From contig JACPSJ010000001.1 in NCBI GenBank assembly GCA_016193315.1, forward strand, positions 91,981 through 155,980: DNA of 64,000 nt. The letters run 5' to 3'. The notes beneath the pieces were generated by a model. That model had not been told where the DNA came from. It saw only the letters and a program-made list of their open reading frames with translations, and ran no database searches. Positions 4,586-27,215 of the stretch are shown here, in pieces. A program made the position numbers and the translations under genes. Source of the stretch: Candidatus Kerfeldbacteria bacterium (GTDB taxonomy: Bacteria; Patescibacteriota; Patescibacteriia; SBBC01; CAIJZX01). The number at the start of each line of letters is the position of its first letter. Position 1 is the first letter of the stretch.

Positions 4586-5191
4586 CTAGTGTTTCTGATC
4601 GATGATTTTGTCGATCAAGCCGTACTTTTTGGCCTCGGCTGGATCCATGAAGAAGTCGCGGTCGGAGTCGTGGTCGACCGTTTTGAGACTTTGGCCGGTG
4701 TGCTTGGCCAGCAATTGGTTGAGACGATCTTTTAGTTTCAAGATCCGTTCCGCCCGAATCTTGATGTCTGAAGCCTGGCCTTCGGTGCCGCCCATGATCT
4801 GGTGGATGAGAATTTCGGCGTTCGGTAGGGCGAATCGCTTACCCTTCGTGCCAGCCGCCAAGAGCAGTGCCCCCATCGAAGCCGCCATGCCGACGCAGAT
4901 CGTCTGGACATCCGGTTTGACGTACTGCATGGTGTCGTAGATGCCGAGGCCAGCGCTGACTGAGCCGCCGGGGGTGTTGATGTAGACTTTGATGTCTTTC
5001 TGCTTGTCTTCGCTGTCGAGGAACAGGAGCTGGGCGATGACCAAGTTGGCGACGTGGTCGTCGATCGGCGTGCCGACGAAAATGATCCGTTCCTTCAGCA
5101 GCCGCGAGTAGATGTCAAAGGCCCGTTCGCCGTAGGTGGTCTTCTCGAGGACGGTGGGGATGAGGAGTTGGTTGCGGATGTCTTTTATCAT
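4586..5191 (-). CDS. clpP: ATP-dependent Clp protease proteolytic subunit
   Basis: 201 aa. Full-length similarity to ClpP, with catalytic Ser (GMAASMGA), His (IHQ) and Asp. Confidence 0.9.
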
Positions 5192-5232
5192 ATCGGCATT
5201 AGTATAAGGGAGGCCCGATGATCTGACAATAC

Positions 5233-5982
5233 CTAGTCACGCGATTTGGTGATCCGTGATACCTGCCACATGATTTCGAACAGGTTTTTCTGTGTTTGGT
5301 AGAAATCTTCCGATTCGATGATCATGCCGAAGTTTTCCTTTTCGGTGCCGATTAAGCCGACTTTATTGTCATAGAGGTACTGGGTCATCGGAAAAACGAA
5401 ATCAGCCGGAGCATAACGCAGTGTTCGACTCTCAGTCACGCTCGTTGGCCACGTTTCCTCGATTTCTTTTATTTCCGAACGCATGACGCGTAGTTGAATA
5501 CCCGCCTTAATCCGTCGCACGACGTAATCATCCATAAATCCTTTACCAGGAATTTTGTAGAGATCAGCCATCGACAAAATCCCGCGGAGCTGCTTATCGC
5601 TAACCGTCAGAGTGTCTTCAAAGACCGTTTTAACCCCGGCCAGACCATCGTAAACCCTGATTTTTGGACGGCGGCCTTTCGTACTTACGAGCGACTTCAA
5701 TTCGGGCAAGACGGAAGCCAAACTACGTTCCTTGTCTTTGAGTAGCGCCTTAAGCTTCTCCGGTGATTCGGCGCTGTAGATGCGAGCCCGGCCCTTAGTC
5801 ACATAACTAACGAGCGCCATCGCGGCTAAGGCGTCGAGAATTTCAATCACCGTCGTCCGCGGTAACCTGGCCTTGGTGGCTATCTCCAGGGCTGTGCCCG
5901 AACCGGTTTCCAGACTAGCCAAGTAGACAACGCCCTTGTTTTTCTTCAGTCCTAACTCATCAAGAACCTGTTGGATGGCCAT
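5233..5982 (-). CDS. TrmB-family transcriptional regulator (wHTH N-terminus + C-terminal domain)
   Basis: 249 aa. N-terminus [35 protein letters not shown] is a TrmB-like winged HTH. A paralog lies at 26445..27215. Divergent AT-rich promoter region at 5983-6177. Confidence 0.6.
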
Positions 5983-6177
5983 TACAGTGCCTTATGTCGA
6001 TTATTTCCGACGACAGTAACGATATCATACTTGGCTAATATAAGTAAATAAATCAATATCATTAACTTAGGCCAGTGGTTTTGTCCGGAAATGATTGACA
6101 GTTCGTTTGAATAAGTATATGCTGGCTTGTTCAAAATCGAAACCGCTAACATACGAACCTTTCCAAAGGAGACCACG

Positions 6178-8044: not shown

Positions 8045-8986
8045 ATGAAACTCGAGGAGCGATTTCCGCACCTGCCGAGTCTGTTGGGGGATTGCCCGCG
8101 CTGCATCAGTCGGGCCGGAGTCGATGAACCGCGAAGTCTCACATCTCCTGCCTGGTTGCTAGCTAACTTGGGCTTACTTGCCGTGGCGGTTATCTTTCCG
8201 TTCGCGGTCGTTGAGGGGTTGCGGGCAAGCTCGGCCCTGGAAATCCCCCGGCTTATCCCGTCCCTGACTGCGGGGATTCTCGTGGTCGCGCTGGAGGCCG
8301 CTCTTTCCACCTGGCACTTCCCATTCAAGATGAACGGGAAGTTGCACATACACCGCCAGGATCCGCGGAAAGAGCTGCTCGGCAACGCCGACTATGCCTG
8401 GGTCAAGAACGAGCACGAGCCGTCATCCGCTCCGTACAGGATCGAGGGCCCGATCTTCCGTTTCCGGAACGGCGGGTACTTCTTCAAGGTTCTCTACCGA
8501 CTCTTCCGGCGCCGCGACCCGAACCGCATCTTCTGGCCTTCCCACGGGACGACGGCCGACGTCGTCCAGCCCATGCGGATCTCCGACGGCTCCACCATCT
8601 ACAACGTGGTGCTGATCAGTGAAAACCCCAGGGTCAAGGACTCTCGCAACGTGCCGCTCGAGAAGGCGCTCGAGATCGCTTCAGAGTGGTGCCGACTCGG
8701 TTCTTACCTGGACCATGTCGATCAGGAGAGCGGATGGTTCCAGGGGCTCCGGCTGAGTCACGCCGCGGTGGTCAAGTACCTAAACTCCAACCGTGATCGG
8801 CGGGGCTCTCCGGTCGGCCAACATGCCCGGGAGCTGCTGGAAGTGGCACTGGCCGATCTGGGCGTCGACTTCACTGCTTCACGGGGGCCTCTGACCGAGG
8901 CGCGCGTGGCGGAGCATCTAGGGAGGCTAGAGCAGCTGATCGCCGAACGGACGGTCAAGGAAGCCGAGACGGTTCCCGCCGGGTAG
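8045..8986 (+). CDS. hypothetical membrane protein (two N-terminal TM helices, soluble C-terminal domain)
   Basis: ORF track 8033 (TTG) ..8986. An ATG at 8045 is preceded by GGAGGA. Hydrophobic segments LLANLGLLAVAVIFPFAVV and LTAGILVVALEAALS. No recognisable domain. Confidence 0.5.
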   Translation: MKLEERFPHLPSLLGDCPRCISRAGVDEPRSLTSPAWLLANLGLLAVAVIFPFAVVEGLRASSALEIPRLIPSLTAGILVVALEAALSTWHFPFKMNGKLHIHRQDPRKELLGNADYAWVKNEHEPSSAPYRIEGPIFRFRNGGYFFKVLYRLFRRRDPNRIFWPSHGTTADVVQPMRISDGSTIYNVVLISENPRVKDSRNVPLEKALEIASEWCRLGSYLDHVDQESGWFQGLRLSHAAVVKYLNSNRDRRGSPVGQHARELLEVALADLGVDFTASRGPLTEARVAEHLGRLEQLIAERTVKEAETVPAG

Positions 8987-15282: not shown

Positions 15283-15663
15283 CTAGCCCTTGGTCGGCGG
15301 GGCGGGTTCCTGATTGGCCATGGTGATTTTTCCGTGGAGGATTGCGCCGTGTGCGACCACAATGCTCTTCGTGTCGACGTTGCCAAAAATCTTGGCCGTC
15401 GAAGCCAACTCGATCTTTCCCTGGCACTTGATGTGGCCACGGATTTCGCCGGCCACGGTAATGTTAGCGGCTTCGACTTCGGCTTTGACCACAGCTCCTG
15501 GCCCGACGCGTAGGCTCTTACTCGTTTTTAGACTACCGGCCACGTGGCCCTCGACCACGACATCCCCCCCGCCGACAAAATTCCCATCAACTTTAACCGT
15601 TGAGCCGATAATCGTCTCCACATCCCGCCCATGCTCGCTACTGTCTTTGGCGAACATCCCCAT
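15283..15663 (-). CDS. bactofilin family polymer-forming cytoskeletal protein
   Basis: 126 aa. Repetitive beta-helical pattern (VDGNFVGGGDVVVEGHVAGSL...ANITVAGEIRGHIKCQGKIEL) typical of DUF583/bactofilin. Confidence 0.75.
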   Translation of the reverse strand: MGMFAKDSSEHGRDVETIIGSTVKVDGNFVGGGDVVVEGHVAGSLKTSKSLRVGPGAVVKAEVEAANITVAGEIRGHIKCQGKIELASTAKIFGNVDTKSIVVAHGAILHGKITMANQEPAPPTKG

Positions 15664-16283: not shown

Positions 16284-16357
16284 GCCCCTGTAGTTCAATT
16301 GGATAGAACGGCCCCGTCCTAAGGGGCAAATCCTGGTTCAAGTCCAGGTAGGGGCAA
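16284..16357 (+). tRNA. tRNA-Arg (anticodon CCT)
   Basis: Cloverleaf built by hand: acceptor GCCCCTG/TAGGGGC, anticodon stem GCCCC/GGGGC, loop GTCCTAA. CCA not encoded. End coordinate is approximate (+/-2 nt). Confidence 0.75.
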
Positions 16358-16439
16358 AGCAAATGCGTATCTAAGACTCGTGTTTATCAGCACTGACGGG
16401 ATATAAATTGTCTGTAGACTTGCGTCCCGCGCCAATTTT

Positions 16440-16512
16440 GGGCCGTTAGCTCAGTTGGTAGAGCACTTCCATGGCATGGAAGGGGTCAGGAGTTCGAGTC
16501 TCCTACGGTCCA
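16440..16512 (+). tRNA. tRNA-Ala (anticodon GGC)
   Basis: Acceptor GGGCCGT/ACGGTCC with the G3:U70 Ala identity pair. Anticodon stem CTTCC/GGAAG, loop ATGGCAT. Confidence 0.85.
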
Positions 16513-16696
16513 GAATTGCGGCGGGAAGGCGACCGGTTCCACCCCGGTATGTTCCAGCAATGGCTCGGAAAGGTAAGGACTTTAGAGTCCAAACGGTCGA
16601 AAGCAGACACGACGTTCTTCCTATCGAGTTAGAACGTGATAAGGTTTCCAATGGTAATAACATAGATAATGCCATCCAAATGAGTAATTTTTTAGA

Positions 16697-16776
16697 TGTT
16701 CCACGAGGAACAATCAGGTATTAGGAGATGTTCCACGAGGAACAATCGCAAAAACGAAAATGTTCCACGAGGAACA
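16697..16776. promoter_or_regulatory. tandem array of three perfect 16-bp palindromes TGTTCCACGAGGAACA (20-nt conserved unit ATGTTCCACGAGGAACAATC/ATT) at exactly 32-bp spacing
   Basis: Copies at 16697-16712, 16729-16744 and 16761-16776. The first two share 20 identical nt. The third abuts the -35 of the promoter at 16777. Confidence 0.6.
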
Positions 16777-16805
16777 TTGACAAGAGAAAGGTAAAGTGTT
16801 ATAGT
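16777..16805 (+). promoter_or_regulatory. near-consensus sigma70 promoter, TTGACA-17-TATAGT
   Basis: TTGACA at 16777-82, a 17-nt spacer, TATAGT at 16800-05. No CDS downstream; the transcript would enter the tRNA-Ala fragment cluster. Confidence 0.5.
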
Positions 16806-16950
16806 ATGGGGAGTTCTCATTGATGACTCTTTGAATCAAGGTAATTTGCATAGTATCGCATTCGTACTCTCAAAAGCTGGGGATGTAGTTCACCCGTAAT
16901 TTCCTAGAGGGCGGGCAATGGCCGGGCATCTCATTCGTCCCCCACCATTT

Positions 16951-16990
16951 GGGCTCATAGCTCAATTGGTAGAGAACTGCATTCGACCAG
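16951..16990 (+). pseudogene. 5'-half tRNA-Ala-like fragment (acceptor + D arm + anticodon 5' stem, no T arm)
   Basis: GGGCTCATAGCTCAATTGGTAGAGAACTGCATTCGACC parallels tRNA-Ala(CGC) 17001.. through the anticodon loop, then diverges. Confidence 0.5.
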
Positions 16991-17000
16991 TACCTTTTCC

Positions 17001-17073
17001 GGGCCGTTAGCTCAGCTGGTAGAGCGCTGCATTCGCATTGCAGAGGTCAGCGGTTCGAATCCGCTACGGTCCA
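17001..17073 (+). tRNA. tRNA-Ala (anticodon CGC)
   Basis: Acceptor GGGCCGT/ACGGTCC (G3:U70). Anticodon stem CTGCA/TGCAG, loop TTCGCAT. Confidence 0.85.
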
Positions 17074-17079
17074 AAAAAG

Positions 17080-17240
17080 GTGCTGGACGGGGTTGGGGGT
17101 TCAAATCCCTCATCTCCACCAAACACAGGCAAGCAGGCGGGGCGCCGCAGTAGCATTGCGGAGTTGGCCGGTTCGATTGCGGCTGGGTCCAAATGGTGGT
17201 GTTTAGAGCTTCAGGGTTCAAATCGGCTAGACCCGCGGAC
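17080..17240 (+). repeat. three degenerate tRNA 3'-end (T-arm + acceptor) fragments in tandem
   Basis: GGGGGTTCAAATCCCTCATCTCCACCA; GGTTCGATTGCGGCTGGGTCCA (compare Ala 3' end GGTTCGAATCCGCTACGGTCCA); GGGTTCAAATCGGCTAGACCCG. Confidence 0.45.
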
Positions 17241-17254
17241 TATTTTCTGAAATC

Positions 17255-18088
17255 ATGGAGAAATTATTCATCAAGAATCGTCATAATCAGAAGTTAGCCG
17301 TTGTAGTTGAGAAAAGGCCGAGCCAAGCAGGGCTTGCTTTTGTCATGCACGGGCAGAGCGGATTTAAGGAACAACCCCACGTTCGAACGTTTATTGATGC
17401 ATTCCTAGAAAAAGGGTTTACGGTCGTCAGTTTTGATGTTGCAAACACCATTGGAGAGAGCGAAGGCAACGCGTCAGACGCAACCATCACGAGTTATTAC
17501 GAGGACTTAGTGGATGTTGTGAAATGGTCTGAATCACAAGAATGGTACGAAGAACCATTTGCTCTTGCTGGGCATAGCCTAGGAGGTATTTGTAGTGCTT
17601 TGTACGCGGAGAACCACCCCTCCAAAGTTAAGGCACTTGCGCCTATATCAACAGTTGTGTCGGGAAAACTAAGCTATGAAGCCCATCCGAAAGAAGAACT
17701 CAAAGAATGGAAGCGTACCGGGTGGCAAATAAAGCACAGTAAATCCAAGCCTGGCGTCACAATACGACTTCCTTGGTCAAATATGGAAGATCGTCTGAAA
17801 TACGATTTACTAAAAAAAGCGGGTCAGCTTACAATGCCAGTTTTGTTAATAGTTGGAGAAAAAGATGACGGGACTCCACCGAAACACCAAAAACTACTCT
17901 TTGATGCAATTCCGGGCAACAAAGAGCTTCATGTCATCAGGGATGCGCCACACACTTTTCGAGAAAAGGCACAGCTAGATGAGATTAAATATATATTTCT
18001 GAAGTGGATCGACAAAGTGAAAGCATTTGCCGCGAAAGAAAAATCGAATAAGATTGTTTCCCACGGCTTCGGTGGCGGAAAAACTTGA
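17255..18088 (+). CDS. alpha/beta-hydrolase fold protein (AT-rich, probably horizontally acquired)
   Basis: 277 aa. Nucleophile elbow GHSLGG. Visibly lower GC than the flanking sequence. Confidence 0.75.
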   Translation: MEKLFIKNRHNQKLAVVVEKRPSQAGLAFVMHGQSGFKEQPHVRTFIDAFLEKGFTVVSFDVANTIGESEGNASDATITSYYEDLVDVVKWSESQEWYEEPFALAGHSLGGICSALYAENHPSKVKALAPISTVVSGKLSYEAHPKEELKEWKRTGWQIKHSKSKPGVTIRLPWSNMEDRLKYDLLKKAGQLTMPVLLIVGEKDDGTPPKHQKLLFDAIPGNKELHVIRDAPHTFREKAQLDEIKYIFLKWIDKVKAFAAKEKSNKIVSHGFGGGKT

Positions 18089-18217: not shown

Positions 18218-18331
18218 GACTCAACCCCGTTAGCAGTGGCCGAAACGCGCTCTCTGAAAAAGGCAACGATTCTCGCACCATCTAACACTTTGACGGAAAC
18301 CTCCGCACTTCCACTTCTAACGGGGTTGACA
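18218..18331. repeat. inverted-repeat pair CAACCCCGTTAG ... CTAACGGGGTTGACA; the right arm supplies the -35 of the CsoR-like gene promoter
   Basis: Left arm 18222-18237, right arm 18308-18331. The same motif recurs at 29482-29602 and at 11552-11575. Confidence 0.4.
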
Positions 18332-18332
18332 A

Positions 18333-18349
18333 ATACCCCCTGGGGGTAT
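18333..18349. promoter_or_regulatory. perfect 17-bp palindrome ATACCCCCTGGGGGTAT between -35 (TTGACA 18326-31) and -10; a CsoR-type operator candidate
   Basis: GC-rich TACCC...GGGTA inverted repeats are the known operator type for the CsoR family. It is positioned inside the promoter spacer of the CsoR-like gene. Confidence 0.5.
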
Positions 18350-18360
18350 ATGCTGTGTAT

Positions 18361-26435: not shown

Positions 26436-26467
26436 CCCCGCACCTTATGCGGTGCGGGGTTTCTTTG
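26436..26467 (+). terminator. rho-independent (probably bidirectional) terminator, CCCCGCACC-N6-GGTGCGGGG + TTTCTTTG
   Basis: 9-bp perfect GC-rich stem followed by a T-tract. An A-rich tract precedes it on the other side. Confidence 0.55.
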
Positions 26468-27215
26468 GCGCGATCATGAATTGACGCGGTTCTTTAGAAA
26501 TACTCCAAATGAGATCAAAGATACTGCGGAAGGCCTGGGAAATCGAAGGATCGGTGATCACGACCAGATAACGCCCGGCCATAGAATAAAGCCCGATGTT
26601 CTGTCCCCACATAGAAATATCAATGTCATATTTCATGTTCGGCGGCATGATCCGGATCCGGCGGTTTTTAGAGTTGTATTTTTTGGCATAGACGATATCG
26701 GCCGGGGTGGCAGTCACAATTTCCCAGGCTTGCTTGATTTCCCCCCGTCTGAGTTGTTGTTCGTAGGCAGCTAAGAGATCTCCGTACAGCTCAGTCAGAT
26801 TCTTTATATGGGAAATGAACCGATTCTCCGGGTGGTGGAACGTCGCCTCCATCCAGACTCTGCTGATATCTTCGACTCGATCGTAATAACGAATTTGCGG
26901 CTTGGTGCCGCCGCGATTTTCCAGGGCTCGTAACATCGGCAGTATTTCCAAGGCTACCTTTTCCTGCTGTTGGGCCGAGGCGAAGAGCTTCTGCGGTGAC
27001 TCAGGTATGTAGACGGTTTTCTTTCCCTCAAATGCTAAACCAGCCAGTTGTTTTCGCCGTAAAGATTCTAAGTCAAGATAGATGGTCGGTCGCTTCAGAC
27101 CGGTTTTTTTCGATAAGGACAGCGGCGTACCACGTCCCAGTTCAAGCAGGGAAGTGTAAATTCGTGCCTCGCGAGCCGTGAGACTGAGCTGGGCCAGAGC
27201 GTCATGGATATCCAT
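26445..27215 (-). CDS. TrmB-family transcriptional regulator (paralog of 5233..5982)
   Basis: 256 aa. N-terminal wHTH (LSLTAREARIYTSLLELGRGTPLSLSKKTGLKRPTIY). Confidence 0.6.
   Translation of the reverse strand: MDIHDALAQLSLTAREARIYTSLLELGRGTPLSLSKKTGLKRPTIYLDLESLRRKQLAGLAFEGKKTVYIPESPQKLFASAQQQEKVALEILPMLRALENRGGTKPQIRYYDRVEDISRVWMEATFHHPENRFISHIKNLTELYGDLLAAYEQQLRRGEIKQAWEIVTATPADIVYAKKYNSKNRRIRIMPPNMKYDIDISMWGQNIGLYSMAGRYLVVITDPSISQAFRSIFDLIWSISKEPRQFMIAPKKPRTA

Follow-up and report, generated by a model that had tools for sequence, protein, structure and literature searches.

Chromosomal parS centromeres with the sequence TGTTCCACGTGGAACA have been validated in Pseudomonas aeruginosa, Pseudomonas putida and Bdellovibrio bacteriovorus, the parS consensus is TGTTNCACGTGAAACA, and the Bacillus subtilis parS TGTTCCACGTGAAACA has been studied experimentally (PMC7022226, Table 1). 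The parS sites and the Noc-binding sites (NBS) differ at half-site positions 1 and 6, and single lysine substitutions at residue 179 or 184 of ParB lead to the binding of several DNAs that differ at these two positions (bioRxiv 10.1101/724823). Proteins of the ParB family are also described as silencers or repressors at centromere or operator sites, as is the case of P1 ParB, RK2 KorB and P. aeruginosa ParB (PMC7022226, section 10). The locus described here lies in a 64,000-nucleotide stretch, the window, from a Candidatus Kerfeldbacteria bacterium (assembly GCA_016193315.1, contig JACPSJ010000001.1, positions 91,981 to 155,980) and contains three 16-bp inverted repeats placed beside a promoter. 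These repeats are likely to be a parS centromere cluster for the loading of ParB, whose third site abuts the promoter of a transfer RNA (tRNA) gene. The evidence that carries this assignment is the identity of the repeats with parS, the conservation of their arms together with canonical parS at the orthologous locus, the variant cores found in parA and gidA contexts, and the proximity to the origin in one relative.

The array and the promoter that follows it are composed of the following features.

16697 to 16712, no strand assigned, parS-like site 1 (TGTTCC-ACGA-GGAACA), an exact match that is 15/16 identical to TGTTCCACGTGGAACA
16729 to 16744, no strand assigned, parS-like site 2, 32 bp from site 1 and with AGATGTTCCACGAGGAACAATC as in copy 1
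16761 to 16776, no strand assigned, parS-like site 3, 32 bp from site 2 and abutting the -35 hexamer
16777 to 16805, plus strand, putative sigma-70-type promoter TTGACA-17-TATAGT with an extended -10 TG, by consensus match

The three sites share the sequence TGTTCCACGAGGAACA, a 6-4-6 inverted repeat with symmetric arms (TGTTCC/GGAACA) and an asymmetric core (ACGA). A preliminary description of this DNA had noted the threefold occurrence at 16697, 16729 and 16761 with a three-turn phasing, which is borne out by exact matching (start-to-start distances of 32 and 32 bp). The same description regarded the sites as perfect palindromes within a 20-mer, ATGTTCCACGAGGAACAATC, common to all copies; on both points it needs correction, since the core is asymmetric, the opposite strand of TGTTCCACGAGGAACA matches with two mismatches, and the 20-mer is present in copies 1 and 2 only. 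The longest stretch common to all three copies is the 17-mer ATGTTCCACGAGGAACA, and copies 1 and 2 have in common the 22-mer AGATGTTCCACGAGGAACAATC. The spacers do differ, as had been claimed, spacers 1 and 2 agreeing at 7 of 16 positions. Identical 16-mers beside spacers that are nearly unrelated argue for selection on the sites, or for a homogenisation of the sites alone. Beyond the three copies there is no further match in the 64-kb window, even for TGTTCCNNNNGGAACA with one mismatch. Three matches compare with 0.12 expected by chance, and none of 100 shuffles reached this number. Enrichment of the half-sites GTTCCAC and GTTCCTC was sought elsewhere in the window and gave nothing convincing, and a scan of viral contigs with the single 16-mer returned isolated single matches only, which is consistent with chance.

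As a 16-bp inverted repeat, the element matches parS in the forms TGTTNCACGTGAAACA or TGTTCCACGTGGAACA. The identity to TGTTCCACGTGGAACA is 15/16 and the sole deviation is the change of T to A at position 10, which breaks the symmetry; the identity to the B. subtilis parS TGTTCCACGTGAAACA is 14/16. This one-base variation on parS had escaped the preliminary description. No mention of the exact variant TGTTCCACGAGGAACA was found in the literature searched. The frequency and the setting of such sites were determined by scanning one genome per species (596 Gb) for two TGTTCC-N4-GGAACA sites placed 12-20 bp apart. At least 119 loci carry tandem pairs, the estimated chance expectation for 24 specified bases in 596 Gb being far fewer than one. 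Among the loci listed, the core is ACGT in 252 of about 400 sites, the site spacings peak at 28-36 bp, and a ParA Walker motif occurs in the same 8 kb in 33 of the 77 loci with an ACGT core, usually 100-300 bp from the sites. Pfam annotation gives the order gidA, three sites, parA and parB in locus L135, and gidB, two sites, parA and parB in L155. These counts and contexts indicate that tandem parS pairs and arrays are common and located where parS is expected. A metagenome scan for two sites with the ACGA core found six contigs. In one of them (L245) the two sites precede a ParA gene by about 90 bp, in another (L244) they come just after gidA, and both settings are canonical parS contexts for the exact ACGA variant. 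In several loci of Acidobacteria, the cores of the sites that precede parA are quite different (TGCA, GACT, AACC and others), which indicates that the central four bases are not always constrained.

The Acidobacteriota deserve an observation of their own. Six loci (L122, L123, L143, L167, L169 and L239) contain TGTTCC-N4-GGAACA arrays with the cores ACGG, TGCA, AACC, GACT, CACG and GCAC. These arrays adjoin parA-type genes, mostly between rsmG and parA, and their variable cores suggest that the ParB acting there reads the arms only.

The neighbouring diacylglycerol-kinase-like (DAGK-like) protein of the window is 100% identical to HYY50_00555, encoded on an 857-kb contig of a Candidatus Kerfeldbacteria metagenome-assembled genome. 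Relatives of the window were collected by tblastn and tRNA scans, which place sites beside the tRNA-Ala(GGC)/tRNA-Arg(CCT) pair, in many cases together with the bactofilin and DAGK-like genes, and the closer ones through homologues of the DAGK-like protein. The numbers of sites at the orthologous loci range from 2 to 20 copies, and the cores differ between lineages.

L206, 2 sites, core ACGT
L195, 3 sites, cores TCAA and TTAA
L201, 2 sites, core TCAA
L191, L159 and L179, 9-14 sites, core ACGT
L228 (Patescibacteria), 2 perfect-arm sites with core TCGA and further degenerate ones, beside tRNA-Thr(CGT) and not the tRNA-Arg/tRNA-Ala pair
L247 and L248, 10 and 20 perfect-arm sites, mostly with an ACGA core, at a 33-bp period, in DNA of 32-34% GC

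The order bactofilin, tRNA-Arg(CCT), tRNA-Ala(GGC) and sites is kept in L195, L206 and L247-L250, and in L248 it extends to ClpP and the DAGK-like gene as in the window. L253 keeps the bactofilin/tRNA-Arg neighbourhood and has canonical ACGT sites, with the tRNA-Ala(GGC) elsewhere in the locus, and the same tRNA-Ala(GGC)/tRNA-Arg(CCT) pair adjoins the sites in L191, L159 and L179. The most similar layouts are those of L249 and L250. In L250, tRNA-Arg and tRNA-Ala(GGC) are followed by three sites at 32/32 bp (cores ACGT, TCGC and TCGC), tRNA-Ala(CGC) and an operon for CsoR-like, Trx, TrxB and GDH proteins, and L249 has two sites 32 bp apart between its tRNA-Ala genes and a third one just after. 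This is the architecture of the window with its 32-bp phasing conserved.

When five orthologous regions are aligned, (A)TGTTCC and GGAACA are the only invariant parts and the spacers are unrelated, which upholds the view of the preliminary description that the repeats form an array of sites for protein binding rather than a simple tandem duplication. Over about 100 sites from 15 loci, half-site position 7 is A in 142 cases, T in 50, G in 5 and C in 1, and position 8 is C in 185 and T in 13, which gives the clade consensus TGTTCC-N-CG-N-GGAACA. A recognisable parS is found at homologous positions (core ACGT in L206, L250 and L253) and beside the same tRNA pair (L191, L159 and L179), with the arms kept and the flanks not, and the locus is conserved in genomes that range from 29% to 56% GC. 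The idea that ACGA is a strict evolutionary hybrid of ACGT and TCGA sites was considered and is weakened by L249 and L250, where the bases that flank the CG vary freely.

Sites of this kind also occur inside genes. Intragenic parS sites have been reported, such as the B. subtilis site within spo0J. In L249 (882-897) and L250 (2808-2823), the perfect-arm site TGTTCCGCGTGGAACA is found inside gdh at the same codon position, where it codes for VPRGT in a loop; the window gdh has RAPKDT there and no site. Such a location has been reported for parS and would be odd for an operator. In L191 (1948-4107, minus strand), L159 (3435-4994, minus strand) and L179 (6137-7771, plus strand), the canonical parS array of 9-14 copies lies inside a long open reading frame (ORF) whose product is an O-antigen-ligase-like membrane protein. 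All three frames of the palindrome are used there (MFHVEH, VPRGT and CSTWNI), in apparent loops and with the frame still open, and these cases look like centromere sites inserted in-frame into a gene.

The position relative to the replication origin could be approached in L248. Three clustered perfect DnaA boxes (8311-8451) are placed about 2.3 kb from its array, between tRNA-Cys and yidC/rnpA, and this region is probably oriC. The presence of DnaA boxes beside yidC and rnpA makes the L248 array origin-proximal. The array itself (4872-6062) repeats a 33-bp unit within higher-order repeats of 358/391 bp that are 94-97% identical, each with a TTATCCACT box. The higher-order repeats of L247 and L248 are recently amplified. 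In the window, almost all genes before about 15.7 kb are encoded on the minus strand, and the AT/GC skew changes sign at about 7-16 kb. This switch is compatible with a nearby replication origin, and the array of the window would then be origin-proximal as well.

If the repeats are parS, each 16-mer would bind one ParB dimer through the two TGTTCC arms and the central CG. ParB would act here as a cytidine-triphosphate-dependent clamp protein whose dimers nucleate at parS and, given that the 32-bp spacing is close to three helical turns, the three dimers would be placed on one face of the DNA. Then, ParB would close as a clamp, slide onto the flanking DNA and build a partition complex that marks the region for segregation and probably also serves the loading of SMC. 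The bases flanking the central CG (16-mer positions 7 and 10) vary in the clade, as in TGTTCC-N-CG-N-GGAACA, which would explain the non-palindromic ACGA core. Since site 3 touches the -35 hexamer, the bound ParB may in addition damp the tRNA-Ala(CGC) promoter. The ParB that binds the sites would be encoded elsewhere in the genome.

Several observations weigh against the assignment as parS. ParA, ParB and DnaA are absent from the 64-kb window (six-frame regular expressions, Pfam on 60 ORFs, and tblastn with ParA and ParB from L135 and L155 as queries), there is no parAB from 16 kb before to 47 kb after the sites, and the three proteins are equally absent in about 190 kb of flanks of 18 further loci, mostly of Patescibacteria relatives. 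With no ParB in the window or the flanks, the cognate protein is unseen. A literature search found no description of chromosome segregation, ParB or parS in Patescibacteria, the Candidate Phyla Radiation. The window has no dnaA gene, no perfect DnaA box and no cluster of boxes near the array, so that the indications of an origin in this genome are the skew and the gene-strand bias. The orthologous loci of L252 and L254 have no sites, and sites in a tRNA spacer beside a promoter are what an operator would also look like. Finally, position 10 deviates at a base pair known to determine parS/NBS specificity, and a canonical ParB might bind the variant poorly.

This last point can be set beside the properties of ParB. 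Many Patescibacteria probably encode ParB. The base that varies here (16-mer position 10) is position 6 in the numbering of bioRxiv 10.1101/724823, and the lysine variants are promiscuous precisely at this base, which makes a ParB that tolerates any base there plausible. A bolder proposal is that the ParB of the Kerfeldbacteria group has lost the discrimination at the parS/Noc base pair and reads TGTTCC-N-CG-N-GGAACA, the same-face 32-bp triplet between the two tRNA-Ala genes being both a centromere and a ParB-dependent gate of the abutting tRNA promoter. This we put forward only tentatively, as a possibility with the balance against it. In a more radical variant, a lineage devoid of ParB would have had the ancestral centromere sequence taken over by another protein.

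The other features in the surroundings of the array are listed below.

15283 to 15663, minus strand, bactofilin gene (Pfam and synteny), the conserved divergent neighbour of the tRNA locus with its putative parS sites
16284 to 16356, plus strand, tRNA-Arg(CCT) (ARAGORN and Rfam), a conserved upstream neighbour of the sites (L195, L206, L247-L250, L253)
16439 to 16513, plus strand, tRNA-Ala(GGC) (ARAGORN), the gene found most constantly beside the sites in Patescibacteria
17001 to 17073, plus strand, intact tRNA-Ala(CGC) (ARAGORN; Rfam, 69 bits), the first gene downstream of the promoter
17255 to 18088, alpha/beta-hydrolase coding sequence (Pfam), downstream of tRNA-Ala(CGC)
5233 to 5982 and 26445 to 27215, two TrmB-like proteins (Pfam)

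The promoter TTGACA-17-TATAGT was correctly placed by the preliminary description against the third copy. It matches the consensus at 11 of 12 positions, with an upstream TG, and directly abuts copy 3. Matches of this quality number four in the window against 0.4 expected, all with a 17-bp spacer, and at least three of the four (15727 minus, 16777 plus and 27330 plus) are intergenic and just upstream of a gene start. Given this excess, the spacer lengths and the intergenic positions, 16777-16805 is treated as a real promoter. From the position of the -10 element, the transcription start is predicted near 16811-16812, and the promoter probably drives tRNA-Ala(CGC). No plus-strand terminator was found before 17319. 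On the other hand, one statement about the downstream DNA did not survive. The region had been described as devoid of ORFs and occupied by tRNA-Ala fragments only, but it holds the intact tRNA-Ala(CGC) followed by the hydrolase coding sequence. A search for a structured RNA had been suggested for 16806-16950; this segment has no stable fold compared with shuffles (z = +1.1) and no Rfam match except tRNAs at E values up to 10, and a structured non-coding RNA downstream of the promoter is thus poorly supported.

The genes of the window fit a Patescibacteria chromosome (RNase Y, YmdB, ClpP, IF-2, NusA, H+-pyrophosphatase, trigger factor, deoxyhypusine synthase and the two TrmB-like proteins). In Bdellovibrio, a bactofilin gene adjoins parAB. 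In Myxococcus, bactofilins scaffold ParABS (PMC5703909). A functional link between the bactofilin, a neighbour in the window, L195, L206, L247-L250 and L253, and the tRNA locus with its parS-like sites is possible.

The surroundings of tRNA-Ala(CGC) contain tRNA debris at 16951-16985, 17089-17121 and 17132-17193, namely a 5' copy cut short in the anticodon loop, a T-arm/acceptor piece that resembles the 3' end of tmRNA (Rfam E = 4e-4, below threshold), and a decayed tRNA-Ala copy. A 24-nt inverted repeat (16984-17007 and 17066-17089) brackets the intact gene, and L250 has equivalent tRNA fragments with a 15-nt bracket. Short-read Logan assemblies of the same organism (L240-L242 and L257; SRR12113385, SRR12113419 and SRR12113425) break within the two tRNA-Ala paralogues, for which reason the site array is missing from these contigs. 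Far from the array, the segment 54001-55000 has a GC dip (0.40 compared with about 0.57 for the genome) over a methyltransferase ORF, after a tRNA-Cys/Gly/Leu cluster, and may be foreign DNA.

The alternatives named in the preliminary description were an operator array, iterons and arm-type sites, and none of the three gives the best fit, since the geometry relative to promoters varies, no rep or integrase gene is nearby and the repeats are inverted. The operator survives best, although we consider it unlikely. A dedicated transcription factor other than ParB would bind cooperatively on one DNA face and repress the tRNA-Ala(CGC) promoter, and possibly the downstream genes. Such a factor would account for the contact of site 3 with the -35 element of a near-consensus promoter, for the sites of L195 and L206 shortly upstream of a promoter-like element for trxB, and for the same-face spacing of 32 bp kept in L249 and L250; no ParB gene was seen in the window or the fetched flanks, and the window encodes two TrmB-like regulators. 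The geometry, however, is not that of a repressor. The tRNA of L249 starts 17 nt after the last site and leaves no room for a promoter, the sites of L201 are between the promoter and the tRNA, those of L191 and L159 are inside an ORF, and L248 has 20 copies. The placement of the sites with respect to promoters is not conserved, and no syntenic regulator was found. The two TrmB-like regulators noted earlier are indeed present in the window, but nothing connects them with the sites, and L248 has no ORF of at least 100 amino acids beside ClpP, where the window has a TrmB gene. The canonical parS at the orthologous locus of relatives also speaks against an operator, as does the fact that the trx operon has a CsoR-type operator of its own.

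This second operator is the palindrome ATACCCCCTGGGGGTAT (18333-18349), which overlaps the promoter TTGACA ... TATGCT (18326-18354) just upstream of the CsoR-like gene. In L249 and L250 the orthologous operon is likewise preceded by the C5/G5 operator, and ATACCCCCTGGGGGTAT is probably the autoregulated operator of the CsoR-like/thioredoxin/GDH operon. The CsoR-like regulator was considered as the protein that binds the array and was discarded, because its operon is provided with a separate C5/G5 palindromic operator in the window as well as in L249 and L250.

The repeats could also be iterons or an auxiliary element of a replication origin, or arm-type sites of a recombinase that an integrative element left behind at the tRNA genes, a reading to which we give very little weight. 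The tRNA fragments around tRNA-Ala(CGC) are typical integration debris, the strand bias switches nearby, and the DnaA-box-like TTATCCACT is part of the higher-order repeat of L248. Yet the repeats are inverted and not direct, Pfam finds no rep, dnaA or integrase in the window, there is no cluster of DnaA boxes, and the conservation of the locus over genomes of 29% to 56% GC is not expected of the scars of an element. Iterons and origins would be expected to combine direct repeats, rep or dnaA, DnaA boxes and an AT-rich unwinding element, and no cluster of DnaA boxes is present near 16.7 kb. Arm-type sites would be expected to flank an att core beside an integrase or excisionase gene, and no integrase was found among the window ORFs scanned.

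Slightly less credible still are RNA-level hairpins, with a stem of 6-8 bp and a tetraloop, that would work as processing or termination signals in the spacer of a tRNA operon. The sites of L249 and L250 do lie in a spacer between tRNA genes that is necessarily transcribed, and one terminator-like match on the minus strand overlaps site 3. A structural hairpin should show compensatory changes in its stem, but the stem is invariant in about 100 sites from 15 loci and the loop is what varies, which makes this explanation improbable; in other phyla the same sequence precedes parA, and on the plus strand the sites are not followed by a T-tract. Least credible of all is a local duplication without function or a small mobile palindromic repeat, for which the recent amplification in L248 (358/391-bp units, 94-97% identity) and three genomes with parS-bearing segments apparently inserted in-frame into a gene could be invoked, but which fits neither identical 16-mers among essentially unrelated spacers nor arms that do not vary at this locus between distant genomes.

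With the repeats read as a parS cluster, what appeared to be an operator array in the window becomes a recognisable chromosomal element. The order bactofilin, tRNA-Arg, tRNA-Ala and parS would then give a large uncultured radiation a concrete centromere locus that is also conserved, and the sites would help to locate the origin region in metagenome-assembled genomes. The cores of the different lineages (ACGT, ACGA, TCGC, TCGA and TCAA) would offer a natural series for the co-evolution of ParB and parS at a known specificity-switch position. A relaxed ParB, if true, would be a naturally occurring case of the promiscuous intermediates that until now have been observed only among engineered variants of ParB.

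The comparison with the known systems can be made from the most distant to the closest. In common with P1 ParB, RK2 KorB and P. aeruginosa ParB, the window seems to have a ParB-type site directly against a promoter element, whose occupancy could reduce transcription. The abutment is not conserved in the relatives and may therefore be incidental. Noc is not known outside the Firmicutes. The variable base of the present sites (TGTTCC[A/T/G]C) is position 6, which separates parS (A) from the NBS TATTTCCCGGGAAATA (C) (bioRxiv 10.1101/724823). Half-site position 1 in the same numbering, in contrast, stays the parS-like G, and the sites of the window are clustered, whereas NBS are scattered over the chromosome.

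The sopC centromere of the F plasmid consists of tandem 43-bp repeats, each with a 16-bp inverted repeat bound by SopB, a member of the ParB family. This centromere (mentioned in PMC3597684) has in common with the window the regular tandem units with one 16-bp inverted repeat each, and the L248 array (20 copies with a period of 33 bp) is closely similar to it. On the other hand, sopC has a different recognition sequence, belongs to a plasmid and is built of 43-bp and not 32-bp units, which are nearly identical, whereas the spacers of the window have diverged.

The closest system is the chromosomal parS (B. subtilis TGTTNCACGTGAAACA; P. aeruginosa, P. putida and B. bacteriovorus TGTTCCACGTGGAACA; Myxococcus xanthus TGTTCCACGTGGAACG), which is also a 16-bp inverted repeat with the same arms and a central CG, and which occurs in several clustered copies. 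The canonical sequence is found at the orthologous loci of the relatives, and in L248 the array is origin-proximal. The sites of the window differ by having A instead of T at position 10, which makes them asymmetric, by the freedom of positions 7 and 10 in the clade, and by their fixed 32-bp period in a tRNA spacer and not beside parAB. The locus is most likely a parS cluster with a relaxed core specific to the clade and a conserved 32-bp phasing, and in this a variant of an otherwise well-known element.

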